In this document: piece after piece, positions 3,323 to 34,629 of the stretch
How the letters are laid out: each line of letters starts with the position of its first letter
Numbering within the stretch: position 1 is the first letter of the stretch
DNA from: an uncultured Spirochaetales bacterium
Lineage (GTDB): Bacteria > Spirochaetota > Spirochaetia > JABEVK01
NCBI GenBank assembly: GCA_964475005.1
Contig: CAYYUZ010000003.1
Coordinates: 3,500-67,499 of the forward strand
DNA length: 64,000 bases
Reading direction: 5' to 3'
Notes under the pieces: model-generated
The model's input: only the letters and a program-made list of their open reading frames with translations
Told to the model about the DNA's origin: nothing
Databases searched by the model: none
Made by a program: the position numbers and the translations under genes

Positions 3323-4582
3323 ATGAAACCGATCGTCACCCGCCTCTACGCCGTCTTGGTCGCCCTGACGCTGGTTGGTCTGGCCGCGTGGGCGGTGGCC
3401 GATTGGGTTCAACTTCAACAAAAGGCACAGGAGCTTGGGCGAACCGAACTTCGCCAAGCGGCTGGTCTGGTCTCAAACCTGACTCTCCACCCCGGAGTCC
3501 TGGAGGCGGCGGGTCTTGGCCGTGTTTTCTCGCAGGTTCCGGGGGCCGATCCGCATTGGAAGATGCTGCTTCTATCGTCGCCCGACCGGGGAACTGAGTA
3601 CTACCGGGGTCCCAGGACGCCGGTGCCTATTGATCGTGCAGTTCCTCGTTGGGAACCCCAGTCGATGACCGAGGTCAAGGTGGCTCTTCCCGTGTTTCGA
3701 GCCTCTGGCGAGCCGATGACCCTCGAGGGCATCTACCAATTCTACGGTCGGGGGGAGATTTTTCAGCTGTTGAAGGCCTGCGGCGCGACACTGCTGGTTC
3801 TGTTGGTGCTGACGACCATCGTGGTCTTTGTCTCGTCCCGCGTCGGAGAAGCTGAACCGGAAGAACCCAATGAAGAAGCCGAACCAAGCTCCTGGAGCCC
3901 TGAGGAGCCCGAACCGGCCGTTGAAAAGCTCGGTCCCTTGCCCCCGGAAAGAGACGAGGATTACTGGTTCGACGACACGCTGACGATGGAGGATCTGCCG
4001 CCTCTTGAGGAACCCCAGGGGCCTTTGCCCGAGGCCTACGATTCCGCGCCCGAGGACCACGCGCCGGCCACCTATGTGAGCGCACCGGCTGTGGCCTCCT
4101 CGTCCGCGCCGTCGCTGTTTGCGCCCGAATCCGGCTTAGGCTGGGAAGCGTTTTTGGCGACCCGGCTCGACTTTGAGCTCGACCGGGCCTCGGGTCAAAA
4201 CCAGGACTTAGCGCTCATCCTCTTTGAAATCAAATCCGGCTCCGTGATTCAGGCGACCTGGGGACGCCTCGTTCGCGATGCCTTCCCTTCCATTGACCTC
4301 GACTTTGAGTGCGAGGGCGGAGCCGCCGTAGTCTTACCTGGTCGCACCTTGGAACAGGCCCTCCAGGCCGCCAGGAGCTTCGTCGAAACTGCCGACCGCT
4401 CGCTGGGGGGTGCCCTAGTTCACGCCGGAGTCGCGGCGCGCGCGGGCCGCCTGCTGTCTTCGGACACGCTTTTGGGCGAAGCGGTTTCTGCCAAGCGAAG
4501 GTCTTTGGCAGGAACGGTTCGTGTCCTAGGGCTGAAGACCGACCCAGACCGCTACCGCGCGCACCTCAACGCCTCCGCCTAG
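3323..4582 (+). CDS. Membrane-anchored protein with Pro/Glu-rich disordered linker and degenerate GGDEF-like C-terminal domain
   Basis: N-terminal TM helix, a second TM around residue 150, an acidic low-complexity region, and a C-terminus (DLALILFEIKSG...GRLVRDAF...DLDFECEGGAAVVLPG...EQALQAA) that aligns to the GGDEF fold with the GG[DE]EF signature destroyed. RBS AGGAAATG upstream. Confidence 0.4.
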   Translation: MKPIVTRLYAVLVALTLVGLAAWAVADWVQLQQKAQELGRTELRQAAGLVSNLTLHPGVLEAAGLGRVFSQVPGADPHWKMLLLSSPDRGTEYYRGPRTPVPIDRAVPRWEPQSMTEVKVALPVFRASGEPMTLEGIYQFYGRGEIFQLLKACGATLLVLLVLTTIVVFVSSRVGEAEPEEPNEEAEPSSWSPEEPEPAVEKLGPLPPERDEDYWFDDTLTMEDLPPLEEPQGPLPEAYDSAPEDHAPATYVSAPAVASSSAPSLFAPESGLGWEAFLATRLDFELDRASGQNQDLALILFEIKSGSVIQATWGRLVRDAFPSIDLDFECEGGAAVVLPGRTLEQALQAARSFVETADRSLGGALVHAGVAARAGRLLSSDTLLGEAVSAKRRSLAGTVRVLGLKTDPDRYRAHLNASA

Positions 4583-27550: not shown

Positions 27551-27971
27551 TATCTTGCTGTGTGCTTTTCGGGAAGACCTTAACAAGAGACAACGGAGAG
27601 GAAAAATCACCGCCCGCTACGCTCAAGGGCGCATAGGAACGCCGAGGGAAGACGAAGAGCGGAAGAAGGGTTAGAAGAACTCTCGTATTCAAGTTTTCTT
27701 TGTGTACTTGGCGGCTAGCGTCCCGTCAAGTGGTGTAAGAGTGGTGGTCGACCAGTTTCCGCAGATAGTGCGGACCTCCCCAGGGACCACCCTGCAGCCA
27801 AGGAACGGTTTGGTGTCAGGCAAGCGCAGAATCTCTTTCTGGCTTCAAATCGCTGAGGAAAGACACTTGCTCGGCCGTCTTCAGGTTATACGAAGCGAGA
27901 TTATTCGGATCTTTTTGTTTTTTTCTCAAATACTTTGACTTAAAGCACTTGAAGTTTCTAGCTTGTAAAGT

Positions 27972-28385
27972 ATGAAGAACGACTTGGAAAACAGCGTGAT
28001 CTTTGGCAAAGGTGATTCAAATCCCTTTGGGCAATATTTCAGTGGACAAAGTTATCTGAACATCCTTACTCGCGAAGGTGTCTTGACGGCCAATGTCACC
28101 TTTGAGCCTGGATGTCGAAACAACTGGCATATCCACCAAGCGACTGAAAAAGGCGGACAGATCCTGCTCGTTACTGGTGGAAGGGGTTGGTATCAGGAGT
28201 CAGGAAAAGCGGCGCGGGAGCTCATCGCCGGAGATGTCGTTCATATTCCATCTGGTATCAAACACTGGCATGGTGCTGCCCGAGACAGTTGGTTTGTCCA
28301 TATCGCGATTGAGATTCCTGGGGTCGGTGCGAGCACCCAATGGCTAGAACCAGTGTCTGACGCCGAGTATGGGAAGTTGAAGTAA
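27972..28385 (+). CDS. Cupin-2 domain protein
   Basis: 137 aa; cupin motifs NWHIHQATEKGGQILLVTGG and HIPSGIKHWHGA; markedly lower GC than its flanks. Confidence 0.6.
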   Translation: MKNDLENSVIFGKGDSNPFGQYFSGQSYLNILTREGVLTANVTFEPGCRNNWHIHQATEKGGQILLVTGGRGWYQESGKAARELIAGDVVHIPSGIKHWHGAARDSWFVHIAIEIPGVGASTQWLEPVSDAEYGKLK

Positions 28386-28401: not shown

Positions 28402-28976
<575 letters not shown>

Positions 28977-29540: not shown

Positions 29541-30590
29541 ATGAAAGCAGTGATCTTTCAAGGAAAGGGCAAGGTAACGACTGAAGAGCGACCCCGGCCG
29601 GGGGTCCGACAGCCAACGGAAGCGATCGTGCGTGTGGTCCGGGCCTGCGTGTGCGGTTCAGACCTTTGGTATTTCCGGGGCGAGAGTGATCACGCCGTGG
29701 GAGCCATTGGTCACGAGTTCATTGGTATTGTCGAAGAAACCGGGTCGGCGGTACGAAACGTCAAGAGTGGAGACTTCGTCATTGCGCCTTTCGCCTTCAG
29801 CGACAATACCTGTCCCCACTGCCAAGCCGGATATCAAACGGCGTGTCAGCACGGTGGCTTTTTTGGCGCTGGCAACGACGCAGACGGAGGACAGGCCGAG
29901 TTCGTCCGAGTTCCTCAGGCCGACGGAACCCTTGAGGTCGTGCCCAAGCGCAAGTACGACGACGACATGCTCGCCTCGATTCTTTCGCTTTCCGACGTTA
30001 TGGGAACTGGCTACCACGCCGCTGTTAGCGCAGAGGTGAAAGCGGGGGACACCGTGGCCGTGGTCGGCGACGGTGCTGTGGGATTGTGCGGCATCATTGC
30101 TGCCCACCTGCTGGGCGCGAAACAGATCATTGCTCTCAGTCGCAACCCTGCGCGCCAGGCCCTTGCCCGAGAGTTTGGGGCGACCACAATCGTGGCTGAA
30201 CGCGGAAAGGCAGCGATCGACAAGGTGCTCGCGCTCACCGGTGGCATCGGTGTCGATGCCGTGCTGGAGTGCGTCGGCACCGATGAAGCGAACCAGACCG
30301 CGTTCGCCGTGGCTCGCCCTGGTGCAATAGTGGGTCGCGTAGGGGTGCCCCACCAAGTGGAGATCTCGGCTACAGGAACCTTCTTTCGCAACGTGGGCAT
30401 GCGAGGCGGTCCGGCACCCGTCAAGGCCTATATGAGCGTGCTCCTGCCCGCCGTCCTTGAAGGACGCATCCAACCGGGAAGAGTCTTTGACCTGACCACG
30501 GACCTAGATCATATTCAGGAAGCCTACCAGGCGATGGACGAACGGCGCGCCGTCAAGGTGCTGCTCAAAGTCAGCGAAATCGAGGACTAA
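29541..30590 (+). CDS. Zinc-dependent alcohol dehydrogenase (MDR family)
   Basis: 349 aa; catalytic zinc GHEFIG, structural zinc Cys cluster (CPHCQAGYQTAC), Rossmann motif VVGDGAVG. Confidence 0.8.
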   Translation: MKAVIFQGKGKVTTEERPRPGVRQPTEAIVRVVRACVCGSDLWYFRGESDHAVGAIGHEFIGIVEETGSAVRNVKSGDFVIAPFAFSDNTCPHCQAGYQTACQHGGFFGAGNDADGGQAEFVRVPQADGTLEVVPKRKYDDDMLASILSLSDVMGTGYHAAVSAEVKAGDTVAVVGDGAVGLCGIIAAHLLGAKQIIALSRNPARQALAREFGATTIVAERGKAAIDKVLALTGGIGVDAVLECVGTDEANQTAFAVARPGAIVGRVGVPHQVEISATGTFFRNVGMRGGPAPVKAYMSVLLPAVLEGRIQPGRVFDLTTDLDHIQEAYQAMDERRAVKVLLKVSEIED

Positions 30591-31999
30591 TGAAACCTAC
30601 CAACAACCCCAACGCACTCTTGGCCATCATTTGCATCAGCTATTTCATGGTCATCCTCGACAACTCCATCATCTTTACGGGATTGCCCCTGATCGAAGCC
30701 AGCATGCGGTTCACCCCGGCGTCCCTGGCATGGGTGACCAACGCCTATGTCCTCGTGTTCGGCGGGTTCCTGCTGTTGGGCGCACGAGCTGGTGACCTTC
30801 TAGGCCGACGACGGGTATTCCTTGTCGGACTCACCGTCTTTGGCATCTCGTCGGCGCTCGTCGGCCTGGCGCCCTTCAGCGAATGGCTGATCGCCGCCCG
30901 AGCTGTTCAGGGTTTAGGTGCCGCGATCCTGGCCCCTTCGTCCATGGCGCTATTGACCGAGCACTTCGAAGACGGCCACCAACGAGGGAGGGCTGTAGCT
31001 GCTTACAGTGCAGTAGCCGGCATCGGCGCAAGCGCCGGTTTGGTCATTGGCGGGATTCTGGCAGACACGATTTCGTGGCGCGCCGGTTTCTTCCTCAATG
31101 TCCCGATTGCGGTGGCGATGATTGTCGCGGCACTTCGCGTGATTGGCACGAGTCCCCGGCATGAAGGACGATTCGACTTGATAGGCGCCGTGTCGGGCAC
31201 GGCGGGAATGACTGCGCTCGTGTTTGGCATCAACAACGCGGCTGAAACCAGTTGGACCACGCTGACGACGATCGGATCAATGGTCGTTGCGGTCATTCTG
31301 CTGGTGGTCTTTGTATTGAACGAGGCCCGAGCCAAGCAACCCATCATGCCGCTTCGGCTGTTCGCCAACAGACAACGCGTAGGGGCCTACCTGACGCGTC
31401 TTCTATACCTCGGCGCGATGTTTGGCTTCTTCTTCTTTACGACGCAGTACATGCAAGGCATCTTACACTTCAGTCCGCTGCAGGCCGGTTTCGGGTTCTT
31501 ACCCATGTCGGCGATCAACTTCATCATCGCCCTGCTTGTGGTCAGGTTCGTGAGACGATTCGGAGGACCCACCGTCCTGATTGCCGGTGTGACCCTGACT
31601 GGAATTGGTATGGCGTGGCTCAGCCTAGTCGGCCCTGCGAGTAACTATTGGTGGAGCGTCGCTCTCCCCATGACGCTGATCGGCACGGGGCAGGGCCTTG
31701 CCTTTGCGCCGATGACCTCGTTTGGACTCACCCAAGTCGAGCCCAAAGACGCCGGCGCGGCATCGGGCATCGTGAACACCTTCCATCAAGTCGGTAGTGG
31801 TCTCGGACTCAGTATCCTCGTCGCCATGGGCTCTGCAGCAAATGCAGCAACGGTCAGTGGCCAGAATGCCCTTCTTCAGAGGATCAACGTGGCTCTCGTT
31901 GGTAGCACCATACTCCTTTCCGTTGCCCTAGTCATTGTTCTGGTTTTGATTGCACGCAATAGGCGGCATATGCCAGGGGCTTTCTCGTCTGCTGGGTGA
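30590..31999 (+). CDS. MFS transporter, DHA2 (14-TMS, EmrB/QacA-like) drug efflux family
   Basis: 469 aa, about 14 TM helices, motif A region GARAGDLLGRRRV; start overlaps the ADH stop (TAATG). Confidence 0.8.
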   Translation: MKPTNNPNALLAIICISYFMVILDNSIIFTGLPLIEASMRFTPASLAWVTNAYVLVFGGFLLLGARAGDLLGRRRVFLVGLTVFGISSALVGLAPFSEWLIAARAVQGLGAAILAPSSMALLTEHFEDGHQRGRAVAAYSAVAGIGASAGLVIGGILADTISWRAGFFLNVPIAVAMIVAALRVIGTSPRHEGRFDLIGAVSGTAGMTALVFGINNAAETSWTTLTTIGSMVVAVILLVVFVLNEARAKQPIMPLRLFANRQRVGAYLTRLLYLGAMFGFFFFTTQYMQGILHFSPLQAGFGFLPMSAINFIIALLVVRFVRRFGGPTVLIAGVTLTGIGMAWLSLVGPASNYWWSVALPMTLIGTGQGLAFAPMTSFGLTQVEPKDAGAASGIVNTFHQVGSGLGLSILVAMGSAANAATVSGQNALLQRINVALVGSTILLSVALVIVLVLIARNRRHMPGAFSSAG

Positions 32000-32348
32000 A
32001 TCGATCGACCCAAGACCGGAGAAGGAAGGATGTGATTCCCTCGTTGTCTTATTGTCGATCACTTGGCATCTCACGAACTGGCTCCATGGAACATGAGTCG
32101 CCAATCAGACCGCCAACGCATGTTCTGAGCATCGACGCGGTTCGAGGAAGGAAGAGAAGTATCTGCCCTTGCGGAGCTTAGGGATCTTCAGGTTCAGCCA
32201 CCCATCCTGGTCTGAAGACCTCGGCCTCCATGAGCTTTTGAAGAACAAACTATCCTAGCTGCGGTAGCAGGTCGCCCCCGGTGTGATTCCATTCTGCCTC
32301 AATCATTGCCGACCGGCGACAGTCAACCAATTGGGGAGACTCTTACAC

Positions 32349-32605
32349 CACTCCAGCGGTTCTGCCCTTGAGTGAGCGAAGCGATTTCCGCTGAAACCCT
32401 TTCTGCTGATGCTTTTTCACTTTCAGCATCTGCTGAAACGAATTCTCCTGATGAAGATTTGTCCTCTTCATCTGCTGAACGGGTTTCTCCTGATGAATGT
32501 TTGGTTTCAGCATCTGCAGAATTGAATTCTTCAGATGAAGTTTTCCTTTCGACATCAGCTGAACGTCCGTCAGCACATGCTGAAACAAATTCTCCTGATG
32601 AATTT
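32349..32605. repeat. Degenerate tandem repeat array, about 5 copies of a 40-57 bp unit with internal palindrome TCAGCAtcTGCTGA
   Basis: Units (TCAGCATCTGCTGAAACGAATTCTCCTGATGAAGATTTGTCCTCT and variants) read directly. AT-rich. Both strands give repetitive ORFs judged non-coding. Confidence 0.6.
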
Positions 32606-32660
32606 TGCCATTTTCCGGTTTTTTCACAAGAGGCAACGGAGATAGCGAAGAAGACCGAAC

Positions 32661-32727
32661 CACGGATAAACACGGATTCACACGGATGGGAAAAGGATCA
32701 ATCGGTGTTGATCCGTGTCCATCCGTG
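32661..32727. repeat. CACGGAT direct-repeat triplet plus nested inverted repeats
   Basis: CACGGATaaaCACGGATtcaCACGGATgg ... GGATCAA-tcggtg-TTGATCC ... CCATCCGTG, just past the stop of the convergent PilZ-like gene. Confidence 0.55.
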
Positions 32728-32798
32728 GTGAATCCCCCTTTCTGCCCATCCACTGTGTTCCTCTTCTCCGATGACTCCGCGTTCTCTTGTTCAGAATC

Positions 32799-33860
32799 TC
32801 AGGGCGTAGGACTCTCGGCTTCGACCTTTGGCCCTTCCTGGGCCTCCTGCACCTTCTGTTTCATGTACGCGATCAGACGGCTCTTGGTCGCTATGTCGAG
32901 ATACAGGAAAAGCAGACCGGCCTCATTCGTGCCTGAGCTTGTCATGAAAGCCTGCGACGGGACGACTTCGATGGGACCGAAGGCCCAATTGCGGGTGGCG
33001 CCTCTCTCCCCAAAAATCAACTGGTAGATCTGCCCCTTCTTCAAGGGCCGACCGACCTGCACTCGCACGCCTTCCAGACTCAAGTCAAGAACCTTCACAG
33101 TCTCGTTGAACGTGGTGCGAGGGTCGGCGATCGACCCCGACGCGTTGTCGAGCCCGATGCGCGAGTAGCGGCGGCCTGCTGTCAGAACCACCTCTTCGGG
33201 TTTGCGCAGAAACAGGCCGACGTCGTTGCGCACGTCGGTGATGACCGTCGATCCCTGAAGGAAATTCTTCCCCACGTTGTAGTTGAGCTGAAGAGCCGTT
33301 CCCTTTTTGAGAAACTCAGGAATCGGCGGACGGTATTCGACAACGATGTGTTTGCCGGTGATTTCAAGCACCTTGGATTTGATCAAATGCAGGGTTCCCG
33401 CCGTCGGGAAATCAAGCTCGATGTCGAAGCCCTCCTCGAGGGGATAGTTCTGATTGATGAAATCTTCAACTTCCTTTTCGGTGGTCTTCATCCGGTGAAG
33501 CTCGTAGAAAAAGAACTCAGAGTACTTCTCAAGAACCGACGACGGAACGGCTTGCGCCGAGCCCTCATGGTGCCGGAACTCGTTGATCAGTTCTTGAATG
33601 CGTTTTTGCTGGAGAGGGTTGAGCCGGCCGACCGCAGGAACGTACTTGGCACGGATCGGCGCGTCAGACCCCTCGGCCATGCCGGGTCCCCGTTTCTGGA
33701 AGCGCTTCTTGGCGTTGCCGTAACGTTGAACCAGGTACCACACCCCGACTACAAGGCCAATAACAACAAAAAAGCCAACAATGAGACCGATATTTCCGCC
33801 GCCCCCGCTGGAACTGAAGCCTTGGGCAAATTGGTTTTGCCAGGCGCCGCCATCATTCAT
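32799..33860 (-). CDS. Membrane-anchored PilZ-like domain protein
   Basis: Start trimmed to MNDGGAW (AGGTGGGGG RBS). Gly-rich segment, one TM helix, then a cytoplasmic domain with RRYSRIG...DNASGS resembling the PilZ RxxxR / (D/N)xSxxG c-di-GMP motifs (imperfect). Confidence 0.4.
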   Translation of the reverse strand: MNDGGAWQNQFAQGFSSSGGGGNIGLIVGFFVVIGLVVGVWYLVQRYGNAKKRFQKRGPGMAEGSDAPIRAKYVPAVGRLNPLQQKRIQELINEFRHHEGSAQAVPSSVLEKYSEFFFYELHRMKTTEKEVEDFINQNYPLEEGFDIELDFPTAGTLHLIKSKVLEITGKHIVVEYRPPIPEFLKKGTALQLNYNVGKNFLQGSTVITDVRNDVGLFLRKPEEVVLTAGRRYSRIGLDNASGSIADPRTTFNETVKVLDLSLEGVRVQVGRPLKKGQIYQLIFGERGATRNWAFGPIEVVPSQAFMTSSGTNEAGLLFLYLDIATKSRLIAYMKQKVQEAQEGPKVEAESPTP

Positions 33861-33915
33861 GATTTTCCCCCACCTGCTTTCAATGTCGGAACTCCTACAT
33901 ATAAGATAAGCATAT

Positions 33916-34629
33916 TTGGGCGTGCTGACACCAAACTCGACCTTTGGGGTTATCATGATCGAGTTCTTCGGGAGGATTGTCATGCGTTCCGCCGCCGAAC
34001 CCAAGGCGTGGGTCGAAAGCCACGTCGTCAGGGTCGCCCAATCGTCGTTTTTGATCACCAGCACCACTTCGTACGTCGTGGCGATCGACCCGTTTACTAC
34101 CTTTCCCAAGGGGGTTAAGGCCGACGTGGTCCTGATCACTCACAGCCACCCCGACCACTTCAACGCTTCGAAGGTCCGCTCGCTGTTGAAACCCGGAACC
34201 CGTGTCGTGTTTCCGGCCTCGATGAAGCGCAGCGGCGCGGACCGCGGTTTGGCGACCGACGCTCTGGTGCCCGGCGACACGCGTTTGATCGGCCCGCTGA
34301 CGTTGACCGCCGTGGCCGCCTACAACCTGAAACGCCCCATCCACCGCCGGTCTCAGGGGTTCCTTGGGTACCTTTTCACCCTGGACGGACTGAGGTTGTA
34401 CCATGCCGGCGATACGGATTTGATCCCCGAAATGCAGGCGCTCGTGGCCGATGTCGCCCTTCTGCCTGTCGGCGGTCTGGTTACGATGAACCCTGTTCAG
34501 GCCTCACAAGCCGCCCGAGAATTGAAGGCCAAGGTGGTGGTGCCCATGCATTATGGAAAGCTTCCTTTCACGCGTCAGGCAGGCAAGAAGTTTGCGTCGC
34601 TCTTTGAAGGGATCACGGTGCTCGCATGA
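33916..34629 (+). CDS. MBL-fold metallo-hydrolase
   Basis: HxHxDH motif (ITHSHPDHF); the true start may be a few codons in; ATGA overlap with the next gene. Confidence 0.65.
   Translation: MGVLTPNSTFGVIMIEFFGRIVMRSAAEPKAWVESHVVRVAQSSFLITSTTSYVVAIDPFTTFPKGVKADVVLITHSHPDHFNASKVRSLLKPGTRVVFPASMKRSGADRGLATDALVPGDTRLIGPLTLTAVAAYNLKRPIHRRSQGFLGYLFTLDGLRLYHAGDTDLIPEMQALVADVALLPVGGLVTMNPVQASQAARELKAKVVVPMHYGKLPFTRQAGKKFASLFEGITVLA

Follow-up and report, generated by a model that had tools for sequence, protein, structure and literature searches.

What is a degenerate tandem array, open for translation on both strands, doing between two convergent genes of an uncultured Spirochaetales bacterium? The question was raised by a sequence-only reading of 64,000 nt of contig CAYYUZ010000003.1 (assembly GCA_964475005.1; this whole stretch is referred to here as the window), in which the array was judged to be non-coding and was offered as a possible protein-binding array (iterons), a remnant of a plasmid or phage replication region, or a phase-variable tract. 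On the evidence assembled below, the array is probably a non-coding, selectively neutral, decaying minisatellite in an IS-scarred intergenic region. Ordinary genomic debris is the most likely explanation because we found no sign of protein coding, of a replication start or of length switching.

Structure of the Array

That the array is a tandem repeat is not in doubt. A tandem-repeat finder (TRF) defined a unit with a period of 42 at 32423–32544 (2.9 copies, 72% matches, 0 indels, score 125), and a repeat finder placed five copies in register at 32381, 32423, 32465, 32507 and 32570 (families D1/D2), with spacings of 42, 42, 42 and 63, no indels, and 64–91% identity to the reference copy. The units had been described as 40–57 bp long; the unit listing instead gives five 42-bp units and one extra 21-bp half-unit over 32381–32611 (Table 1), and each 42-bp unit is made up of two 21-bp halves. 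The cores TCTGCTGAA and TTCTCCTGATGAA recur with variable stretches of 5 and 9 nt between them, as seen in the unit listing and the per-column variation, and TTCTCCTGATGAA, which was said to follow the dyad in the units, is exact in three of the five and altered in the others. Counts of the 27-mer and 13-mer cores were never matched in dinucleotide shuffles of the window, in which the array is single-copy. The variable columns are weakly clustered in two spacer blocks (runs test P 0.03–0.05), which hints at some constraint on the two cores. The region is AT-rich, as originally stated, with a GC content of 0.45–0.46 compared to about 0.58–0.62 nearby. As for its start, the array is indeed present in the region that had been taken to begin at 32349, but that boundary takes in about 17 nt of an IS256 terminal inverted repeat, and the array proper runs from 32381.

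The claim that a perfect dyad occupies every unit was overstated. In a pattern search of the array the exact form, TCAGCAtcTGCTGA (TCAGCA-tc-TGCTGA), occurs once, at 32423, as part of the best dyad of the array, TTTCAGCA-tc-TGCTGAAA; perfect half-sites occur a second time at 32570–32583, with CA as the spacer instead; one further near-copy, with a single mismatch, lies at 32507–32520; and the units at 32465 and 32381 have no dyad. These two exact half-site pairs and the one-mismatch copy compare with 0.14 expected in the whole window. As DNA, the U1 dyad is predicted to form a 7-bp stem with a 4-nt loop (-5.5 kcal/mol).

Table 1. Coordinates of the array, its flanking elements and the reading frames that cross it (window positions).
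Feature	Position	Strand	Description and basis
MFS transporter gene	30590–31999	+	Pfam MFS_1, E 7e-53; gene calls
IS256-family IS remnant	32051–32366	-	blastn, tblastn, Pfam, alignment to other copies
ORF -A	32323–32673	-	116 aa, GTG start; stop codon inside IS remnant
ORF -B	32343–32753	-	136 aa, basic Lys/Gln/His-rich; gene calls in L003–L006
ORF +	32372–32731	+	119 aa, GTG start 6 nt outside IS end
U0	32381–32422	strandless	repeat unit, 42 bp
Best dyad	32421–32438	strandless	perfect 8+2+8 palindrome in U1
U1	32423–32464	strandless	repeat unit, 42 bp
U2	32465–32506	strandless	repeat unit, 42 bp
U3	32507–32548	strandless	repeat unit, 42 bp
Extra 21-bp half-unit	32549–32569	strandless	unit listing
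U4	32570–32611	strandless	repeat unit, 42 bp
165-bp imperfect palindrome	32626–32790	strandless	inverted repeats I1, I3, I4, I9, I10; RNA folds
PilZ-like gene	32799–33860	-	weak PilZ match, E 0.0017; gene calls

The Intergenic Region and Its Boundaries

The array sits in an 800-bp gap between an MFS transporter gene and a PilZ-like gene, and the convergent setting first described is therefore correct. The MFS gene is the final gene of a MerR-ADH-MFS block that converges on the array region, as does the PilZ-like gene, which encodes 353 aa as called (its longest ORF reaches 34139) and carries the SD sequence GGTGGGGG ahead of an ATG at 33860. The called genes from about 8 kb to the left to about 5 kb to the right of the array are SBBP, YggT, RecG, cupin, AKR, MerR, ADH, MFS, PilZ-like, MBL, GH20, OsmC, DUF3224 and beta-lactamase, and the best 25 of the 75 Pfam families in the window are housekeeping.

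On the MFS side lies the remnant of an IS256-family insertion sequence, which retains the left terminal inverted repeat, the leader and approximately the first 117 transposase codons, or about the first 30% of the element. It has suffered internal deletions of about 60 nt (with loss of the start codon) and 79 nt, as well as frameshifts; its 3′ side is truncated about 50 nt from the MFS stop codon, and its outer end (about 32366) is 15 nt from the first repeat unit. Its homology to transposase genes, and to related copies over their left inverted repeat and leader, assigns it to the family, of which a complete element, with an inverted repeat at each end and an undamaged transposase, is no longer present here. 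Using blastn, the remnant matches IS256 transposase genes on plasmids; tblastn with the IPKLRKGRYFSSFLEPRR fragment also returned IS256 transposases; residues 38–117 of ISMex14 match 32293–32051; and matches to P0002 and P0003 are at 52–54% identity. Pfam Transposase_mut (PF00872) aligns over about 45 residues (E 0.002), with a score below the gathering threshold because the remnant is a fragment. No further fragment of an IS256 element was found elsewhere in the window. Other copies (L014–L019) are 72–85% identical to the remnant in the HSPs of a DNA alignment, and these bear on whether the array might itself belong to the element, as subterminal transposase-binding repeats. This idea was rejected: those copies lack the array core and end at the aligned inverted repeat, and what lies past that end is unrelated sequence, which places the array outside the IS256 element.

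The impression that the array marks an island edge was borne out in substance, in that the IS256 remnant abuts the array and in relatives the PilZ-like gene is followed downstream by imuA-imuB-dnaE2 or a different gene instead of the MerR-ADH-MFS block. The remnant explains both this edge and the ORF boundaries, and the MerR-ADH-MFS block is joined to the PilZ-like gene at an IS256-mediated rearrangement scar. At the far side of the block (27.5–28.0 kb) no second IS fragment or repeat was found.

The IS256 remnant and a large palindrome, both missed in the first reading, bound the array and between them delimit all three of its ORFs. The palindrome, 165 bp long and imperfect, begins 8 nt past the stop codon of the PilZ-like gene. 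Its inner arms (32659–32687 and 32701–32729) contain three CACGGAT heptads each in a 10-bp phase, a pattern that gave four matches compared to 0.01 expected, and its outer arms lie at 32626–32654 and 32762–32790. As RNA, the core folds at -45.6 kcal/mol (z -5.2) and the whole at -81.6 kcal/mol (z -5.7), and the palindrome probably acts as a bidirectional terminator or belongs to the REP/MITE-like elements. Like REP/ERIC/MITE-like elements it is long, imperfect and placed right after a stop codon, and many copies of its core motif are dispersed in other genomes; unlike them, its CACGGAT unit is mostly single-armed elsewhere, and the palindrome matches no Rfam family.

The triple CACGGAT motif (AACCACGGATNNNCACGGATNNNCACGGAT in pattern form) is widespread in viral metagenome contigs. 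Copies elsewhere usually consist of a single arm of three heptads at the 10-bp phase, and an inverted partner lies within 150 nt in only 20 of 93. The element has more the look of a binding array at the DNA level than of a hairpin. A literature search for the repeat and its translations returned only unrelated primer matches.

Reading Frames across the Array

Long ORFs on both strands had been noted, and they are present and open. Since the repeat unit is free of stop codons in three frames, three long ORFs arise as by-products, and all three start or stop in IS or palindrome sequence. Examples of frame-specific peptides are FVSADAESEK and TSSEEFNSADAETK for ORF -A, VSPDECLVSASAELNSSDEVFLSTSAER for ORF + and NSILQMLKPNIHQEKPVQQMK for ORF -B. 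A genuine repetitive protein might be recognized by a period that preserves the frame, by homologues in the same frame, and by purifying selection with native codon usage. The first was found, in that the periods (42, 42, 42 and 63, with a half-unit of 21) are all multiples of 3 and are free of frame-breaking indels. Same-frame homologues were not found in protein searches with ORFs -A and + or in family and plasmid searches with ORF -B, and no array frame gave a Pfam, NCBIfam or meaningful PHROG match. Selection and codon usage tell a similar story: differences between units are spread over the codon phases as 49/46/46, inter-unit pN/pS is 0.8–1.0 for ORF + and 1.3–1.4 for both -A and -B, and codon usage across the array plus flank is native in no frame. 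The native genes have a GC3 of 0.735 and GGAG-type SD sequences; the three phases of the array have GC contents of 0.55, 0.55 and 0.16, and the codon log-likelihood ratios (LLR) of ORFs + and -A are lower than the 5th percentile of real 75-codon windows and no higher than the minimum of these windows. The non-coding judgement is thus the best-supported reading, given the lack of homologues in the frames tested, of purifying selection between units and of a native frame; a conserved repetitive protein with same-frame homologues, the one finding that was named in advance as fatal to it, did not turn up in the frames searched.

The simplest of the three cases is ORF +, an acidic SAE/SPDE repeat whose roughly 30 C-terminal residues are read from the CACGGAT palindrome. 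It has no SD sequence, a GC3 of 0.16 and a codon LLR of -0.42; a search of 5.8 billion proteins returned only identical copies from the same species, and we judge it to be spurious.

ORF -A requires more discussion because it is the most attractive candidate for a different, though unlikely, history, in which the array is a relic of a repeat-containing protein gene, that is, the in-frame low-complexity region of what is now a truncated pseudogene. The product would have been a small lipoprotein, encoded on the minus strand and with an acidic tether rich in Ser/Ala/Asp/Glu, whose gene was cut at about 32366 by the IS256 insertion and lost its remainder to a later deletion. Such an origin would account for the indel-free periods and the clean insertion of a 21-nt half-unit, but a length of 21 bp equally makes two turns of the helix, and the units do not count as independent samples. 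A coding origin also predicts the strong three-base compositional periodicity with a single AT-rich phase, and the IS end falls exactly at the point where all three ORFs are interrupted. The N-terminus of ORF -A, MFIRGSVFFAISVASC, fits a PROSITE-type lipobox rule (an N-terminal signal peptide and a lipobox whose Cys falls at positions 15–35, here MFIRGSVFFAISVAS|C) that is satisfied by 4 of 345 ORFs in the window and 0.5% of shuffled ORFs, and its 22 unique N-terminal codons score +0.24. Against this, the lipobox codons sit within an arm of the 165-bp palindrome, so the inverted repeat accounts for the sequence of the apparent signal peptide. Translation would begin at a GTG without an SD sequence, buried in the 3′ arm of the -45.6 kcal/mol hairpin, and this is not a credible start. 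The part of ORF -A within the array has a GC3 of 0.16, far from the native value, and a codon LLR of -0.31, and its pN/pS is that of a sequence free of constraint on the protein. No small gene occupies this position in the relatives. Two very large protein searches yielded no homologue: there was none among 5.8 billion proteins, and the matches among 1.84 billion representatives, to eukaryotic PPR proteins through ISACEKGGQWQ and to YadA-like proteins through SAIGENKTAIGENK, were rejected as convergent low-complexity artefacts. We judge ORF -A to be spurious or, at best, a truncated relic.

ORF -B could instead be a real lineage-specific small protein of 136 aa, which we regard as very improbable. 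Gene calls in four assemblies use this frame, its GTG is preceded at a distance of 6 nt by an SD-like AGAGGA, and its codon LLR of +0.30 inside the array is near the median of real genes. However, the metagenome gene calls on identical DNA begin at three different starts (136, 94 and 77 aa); the unique N-terminal 49 codons consist of palindrome sequence and score as non-coding (LLR -0.17 to -0.50); the final 8 codons and the stop codon are supplied by the IS end; and the pN/pS between units and the lack of any Pfam, NCBIfam, plasmid or meaningful PHROG match speak against a protein. ORF -B, too, is judged to be spurious.

Copy Number and Distribution

A phase-variable tract would be expected to differ in length between populations, and this one does not. 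Six independent metagenome assemblies from different samples span the array, all with an identical length and a single SNP; protein clusters add one more, making two SNPs in the population, and contigs from about nine samples are essentially identical apart from these two. The source samples include ENA ERZ27245396/399/402/619/620, JGI 3300031711 and SRR8543846. The identical length across the six assemblies indicates that the array is not phase-variable. Nor does it resemble a contingency tract, which would have identical short units in a coding region or promoter, since its units are 42 bp long, are about 70% identical and lie at the 3′ ends of convergent genes.

In related Spirochaetales, no such array follows the PilZ-like gene: scans of GTDB and JGI with the PilZ-like protein yielded seven relatives, none with the array, the nearest two (66–67% identity) being on contigs that end 83–165 nt after the gene. 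Plasmids and phages were searched for the unit, a check proposed at the outset: the plasmid matches were confined to the IS256 part, and the phage search returned nothing. Viral contigs gave only chance single matches. Six IMG/VR matches to TGCTGAAN5TTCTCCTGATGAA were set aside as single occurrences inside unrelated phage genes, with no arrays.

Binding Arrays, Replication Regions and RNA

Several outcomes can be envisioned for an array that acts as DNA. It might be a phased protein-binding array, such as an operator, an iteron array or a sopC-like centromere relic, either live or left over from a plasmid or phage; we consider this improbable. A dimeric protein would then recognize TCAGCA-N2-TGCTGA dyads (TTTCAGCAtcTGCTGAAA) that recur at 21-bp multiples. 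The dyad units at 32423, 32507 and 32570 are spaced by 84 and 63 bp, which puts them on one face of the helix; conservation is higher in the cores than in the spacers; the array is AT-rich relative to the genome and adjoins an IS and a rearrangement boundary; and the neighbouring palindrome holds a motif common in viral contigs. The sopC site of plasmid F is a tandem series of 12 repeats of 43 bp, all of which contain an inverted repeat bound by SopB, and iterons are at least three near-identical direct repeats of about 17–22 bp at helical-turn spacing. The array resembles these in its 42-bp units (compared to 43), in the dyad within them and in its direct, helically phased copies. The direct repeats do fall at 21-bp multiples, but each unit spans 42 bp and identity is about 70% (64–91%) where sopC and iteron repeats approach 100%, and, measured as a partition site, the five units hold intact half-sites in only two and a near-copy in a third. 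The genes nearby do not fit either. Rep, ParA/ParB (SopA/SopB), integrase and phage genes are all missing from the calls up to about 8 kb to each side and from the best 25 of the 75 Pfam families, and the context is one of chromosomal housekeeping. The closest TTATCCACA-like DnaA box (at most 1 mismatch) is at 28560, some 3.8 kb away, and the GC content drops only to 0.45, which is not that of an AT-rich unwinding element. Finally, no plasmid, phage or viral contig resembles the array in sequence, and operators are not expected at the 3′ ends of convergent genes. The proposal of iterons or a replication-region remnant thus finds no support.

A CRISPR array, which has near-identical repeats of 24–48 nt separated by unique spacers of similar length, was rightly dismissed from the start: the repeats here are degenerate (64–91% identical), the variable stretches of 5 and 9 nt are homologous between units, the would-be 9-nt spacers included, and no Cas family appears in the flanking gene calls.

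A functional RNA is about as doubtful as a protein from ORF -B, whether it is imagined as a minus-strand transcript that repeats CAUCAGGAGAA (GGA/SD-like) between hairpins and titrates a CsrA-type protein or ribosomes, or, with equally little probability, as a structured plus-strand 3′ UTR with anti-SD-like UUCUCCU motifs. The minus strand has 8 GGA compared to 4.8 expected, three of them in CAGGAG, and the plus strand has none; both strands fold better than shuffles (z about -3.2); and the units offer the 7-bp stem with its 4-nt loop. This is reminiscent of CsrB/RsmZ-type sponge RNAs, in which GGA motifs are likewise repeated between small hairpins, but the CsrA-sponge idea was rejected because GGA is only marginally enriched (P 0.08) and the motifs are not dependably single-stranded, the excess of CAGGA being a reflection of the repeated unit. 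In addition, the centroid of the minus strand shows essentially no structure, neither strand yielded a site resembling a promoter or a terminator, the large upstream palindrome would stop read-through from the PilZ-like gene, and the array matches no Rfam family. The motifs CUGAUGA and CUGAAAC had pointed to a hammerhead ribozyme or a C/D-box (k-turn) RNA, and this was also rejected: by inspection, the spacing of the elements cannot accommodate the helices, and a permissive Rfam scan returned no hammerhead and nothing beyond snoRNA/miRNA noise below threshold.

A Probable History and Its Implications

The reading of the array as a neutral, decaying minisatellite can be put in the form of a history. 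A 21/42-bp segment with an internal dyad would have been duplicated head-to-tail by slipped-strand mispairing or unequal recombination, giving rise to five units and one extra half-unit, and point mutation would then have driven the copies apart to about 70% identity. Copy number would now be fixed because the copies are too diverged for further slippage. On one side an IS256-family element inserted itself beside the array and has since lost most of its length to deletion, and on the other side the 165-bp palindrome probably terminates transcription. The array itself would have no dedicated function and would at most be transcribed passively in a 3′ untranslated region. In its tandem head-to-tail arrangement, intergenic position, degeneracy and spurious ORFs through the repeats, as well as in its probable origin by slippage or unequal recombination, the array resembles VNTR/MIRU-type minisatellites (about 40–100 bp). 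MIRU/VNTR loci are typically polymorphic in copy number and number many per genome, whereas the 64-kb window contains this array only once, and in six assemblies it is invariant.

There is a slight chance that the array is a working cis-element, either a dyad platform on DNA or a set of GGA/SD-like motifs on minus-strand RNA, that titrates or recruits a regulator jointly with the CACGGAT palindrome; if so, it would represent an undescribed regulatory or mobile-element end module in Spirochaetota. As debris, the array is of little importance in itself, but it serves as a worked example of how a stop-free repeat unit can generate three convincing-looking ORFs, and the hypothetical proteins of 136, 119, 94 and 77 aa that are predicted at this locus are best regarded as probable artefacts. 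The part of the locus that is likelier to repay more study is the triple CACGGAT motif.

The Array and Its Setting

The tandem repeat that the sequence-only reading placed at 32349-32605, in an AT-rich gap between convergent genes, is borne out on all three counts: TRF returned an indel-free repeat of period 42 bp at 32423-32544 (2.9 copies, 72% matches), a gap-free repeat finder placed five in-register copies at 32381, 32423, 32465, 32507 and 32570, GC content is 0.45 against about 0.6 in the surroundings, and MFS and PilZ-like genes flank the repeat. The copies are 42, 42, 42 and 63 bp apart and 64-91% identical to the reference copy, the last step comprising a full 42-bp unit and a further half-unit of 21 bp (32549-32569). 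Counts of the core motifs were never reached in shuffled windows, and this is the sole sizeable tandem repeat within the 64-kb window. The dyad that had been described in every unit is found in the exact form TCAGCA-tc-TGCTGA only once; both half-sites are perfect in two units (32423, 32570), the unit at 32507 has a copy with one mismatch, and two units lack it. Likewise, TTCTCCTGATGAA is exact in three units and was overstated as a general feature.

Features of the array locus and of the corresponding position in relatives
Feature	Position	Strand	Remarks
MFS gene	30590-31999	+	converges on array
Decayed IS256-family element	32051-32366	-	left inverted repeat, leader, ~117 codons kept; ~60-nt and 79-nt deletions, frameshifts
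Tandem array	32381-32611
ORF +	32372-32731	+	119 aa
ORF -A	32323-32673	-	116 aa
ORF -B	32343-32753	-	136 aa
Imperfect palindrome, 165 bp	32626-32790		begins 8 nt past PilZ-like stop codon
Palindrome core	32659-32735		inside 32626-32790
PilZ-like gene	32799-33860	-	converges on array
ORFs behind PilZ-like gene in Spirochaetales MAGs	L002 6126-8193; L010 2851-4885; L011 921-2955	+

Open Frames over the Array

Long open frames on both strands had been reported, and three were found; a stop-free 14-codon unit in three of six frames is near chance expectation, and repetition lengthens the ORFs. All three are bounded by foreign sequence: ORF + begins 6 nt outside the end of the neighboring insertion sequence (IS) and ends within the palindrome on the other side, ORFs -A and -B have their stop codons inside the IS, the start of ORF -A lies within the stem of the palindrome, and palindrome sequence encodes the N-terminal third of ORF -B. 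GC3 is 0.735 in native genes of the window versus 0.16 for the array in the + and -A frames, where the codon LLR (-0.42 and -0.31) is lower than in almost every 75-codon window taken from real genes. Differences between units are spread 49/46/46 over the codon phases, with pN/pS of 0.8-1.4 across all frames. Real genes here have GGAG-type Shine-Dalgarno sites, and ORFs + and -A have none. No Pfam, NCBIfam or meaningful PHROG match was found for the array ORFs; ORF -A had no match in 5.8 billion proteins, its hits among 1.84 billion representatives were confined to PPR and YadA-like repeat artefacts, and a protein search with frame + returned only itself, so that no same-frame homologues of a repetitive protein came to light. 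The earlier judgment that the array is non-coding is supported by this lack of real homologues, by pN/pS and by the non-native codon usage of + and -A.

The one positive coding signal is a lipobox match: the N-terminus of ORF -A, MFIRGSVFFAISVASC, passes a rule that 0.5% of shuffled ORFs also meet. The codons concerned are the palindrome arm, so the inverted repeat already explains their sequence, and the GTG start lies in a -45.6 kcal/mol stem. In favor of a real protein from ORF -B are an AGAGGA site, a codon LLR of +0.30 inside the array and the choice of this frame by gene callers, which gave it three different starts (136, 94 and 77 aa) in identical copies of the DNA; with an LLR of -0.17 to -0.50 in its unique part, we regard such a protein as very improbable.

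Elements Bordering the Array

An IS256 remnant, overlooked by the sequence-only reading, marks the point where the MerR-ADH-MFS block meets the PilZ-like gene. When the entire 800-bp gap was searched against plasmids, the only match was at 32110-32207, to IS256-family transposase genes; translated on the minus strand, this segment gives ...GWLNLKIPKLRKGRYFSSFLEPRRCSEHALAV, a conserved IS256 (Transposase_mut) motif. In DNA alignments, related copies match the segment between about 32359 and about 32110 with 72-85% identity, the copy in the window having two deletions (about 60 nt, taking the start codon, and 79 nt), and protein-level homology extends to 32051. The left inverted repeat aligns at 32354-32366, which puts the IS end 15 nt from the first repeat unit; the repeat does lie inside the flagged region, and the first 17 nt of that region are IS sequence. 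The array core is absent from other copies of this IS and the DNA past their ends is unrelated, so the array is flanking DNA and not a component of the element.

On the other side, the palindrome folds at -81.6 kcal/mol (z = -5.7), and each inner arm carries three CACGGAT heptads in 10-bp phase. The pattern CACGGATN3CACGGATN3CACGGAT, with 21 specified bases and a chance expectation of about zero, was matched without error 93 times, in 67 viral-contig stretches of IMG/VR (at most five per stretch; one contig may supply several stretches), on contigs of median GC 0.60. These are mostly intergenic, lie on both strands and have an inverted partner within 150 nt in only 20 cases; their consensus is TTTAAC-CACGGAT-GAA-CACGGAT-nnA-CACGGAT. 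The motif matches no Rfam family, has no match in cultured phage records and hardly any in plasmids, and did not turn up in a literature search by sequence. In layout, its 7-bp direct repeats one helical turn apart resemble OmpR/PhoB-type binding boxes.

History of the Locus

In the related Spirochaetales compared, the PilZ-like gene is followed by a putative imuA-imuB-dnaE2 cassette or another gene, never by the array or the MerR-ADH-MFS block. The ORFs in question (206-207 aa, 477-488 aa and a large third one present in L010 and L011) look like this mutagenesis cassette from their layout and translations, and it is missing at the corresponding position in the window's genome. Since relatives carry other genes here, the MFS/PilZ-like junction has the look of a rearrangement scar: insertion of an IS256 element beside the array would have been followed by a deletion that took away the greater part of the IS, along with the DNA beyond it, and brought the MFS 3' end to about 50 nt from the IS stump. 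The "island edge" proposed earlier is, in substance, supported by this putative history.

Several neighboring features were also recorded. At 28402-28976 (L003, 3813-4387), two short neighboring ORFs that overlap (104 and 93 aa) both match Aldo_ket_red, which suggests a frameshifted aldo-keto reductase pseudogene in the block upstream of MerR-ADH-MFS. The low-GC intergenic stretch of about 420 bp between recG and a cupin gene (27650-28100; GC 0.42-0.49), in which no repeats or IS fragments were found, may form the opposite boundary of the accessory block. The longest PilZ-like ORF spans 32799-34139 (-; 446 aa); an internal ATG at 33860 (353 aa) is backed by gene callers and an SD motif, and only the 353-aa version is on record in the protein collection. 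In a related MAG, the stretch L002 has at 3549-3742 a tandem repeat of 61 bp (3.2 copies, 99% identical), each unit containing a GC-rich hairpin with a run of T after it (...GAACCCCCTCTCGCGAGGGGGTTCGCTTTTT...), amounting to a tandemly triplicated terminator-like element.

Competing Readings

Most probably the array is a neutral minisatellite, now decaying, that serves no dedicated function. It behaves like VNTR/MIRU-type intergenic minisatellites, differing in being single-locus and invariant. Residual doubt comes from a repeat period divisible by 3 and a three-base phase in composition, features that would also agree with two helical turns (21 bp), and from variable positions that cluster weakly in the spacers (P 0.03-0.05). 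The main rival, a truncated relic of a repeat-containing gene, is unlikely.

Less likely still is a DNA-binding array. The 42-bp units with a dyad recall plasmid iterons and sopC of plasmid F, whose repeats are 43 bp, yet the array departs from the defining traits of these families: no partner genes were seen nearby, the dyad is degenerate and no replicon homology was found, so that the suggested iterons or replication-region remnant lack support. Searches of plasmids, phages and IMG/VR gave nothing beyond six chance single matches in unrelated phage genes; over a span reaching about 8 kb to the left and about 5 kb to the right, the genes are ordinary chromosomal ones, the window's top Pfam families are housekeeping, and the closest DnaA-box-like site is about 3.8 kb away. 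A functional RNA has a similarly small chance: the array RNA folds somewhat better than shuffles on both strands (z about -3.2), the minus-strand centroid is unstructured, GGA motifs there are marginally enriched and not reliably unpaired, and no Rfam match or promoter-like or terminator-like site was found. The proposed phase-variable tract, or contingency locus, is rejected by an array length identical in six spanning assemblies from six samples (one SNP, with one more from protein clusters), and the array is, as stated earlier, not a CRISPR.

As for the IS, its two close relatives from the protein search (P0002 and P0003, 52-54% identity) are likewise fragmented transposases and derive in part from metagenomes that also yielded the window's own contigs. 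Further copies (L014-L017, e.g., L014 1983-3055; L018 4001-5165), partly from the same metagenome samples, have a transposase broken into two or three ORF fragments. With these other copies also broken, the IS family appears, from sequence, to be decaying throughout this lineage.
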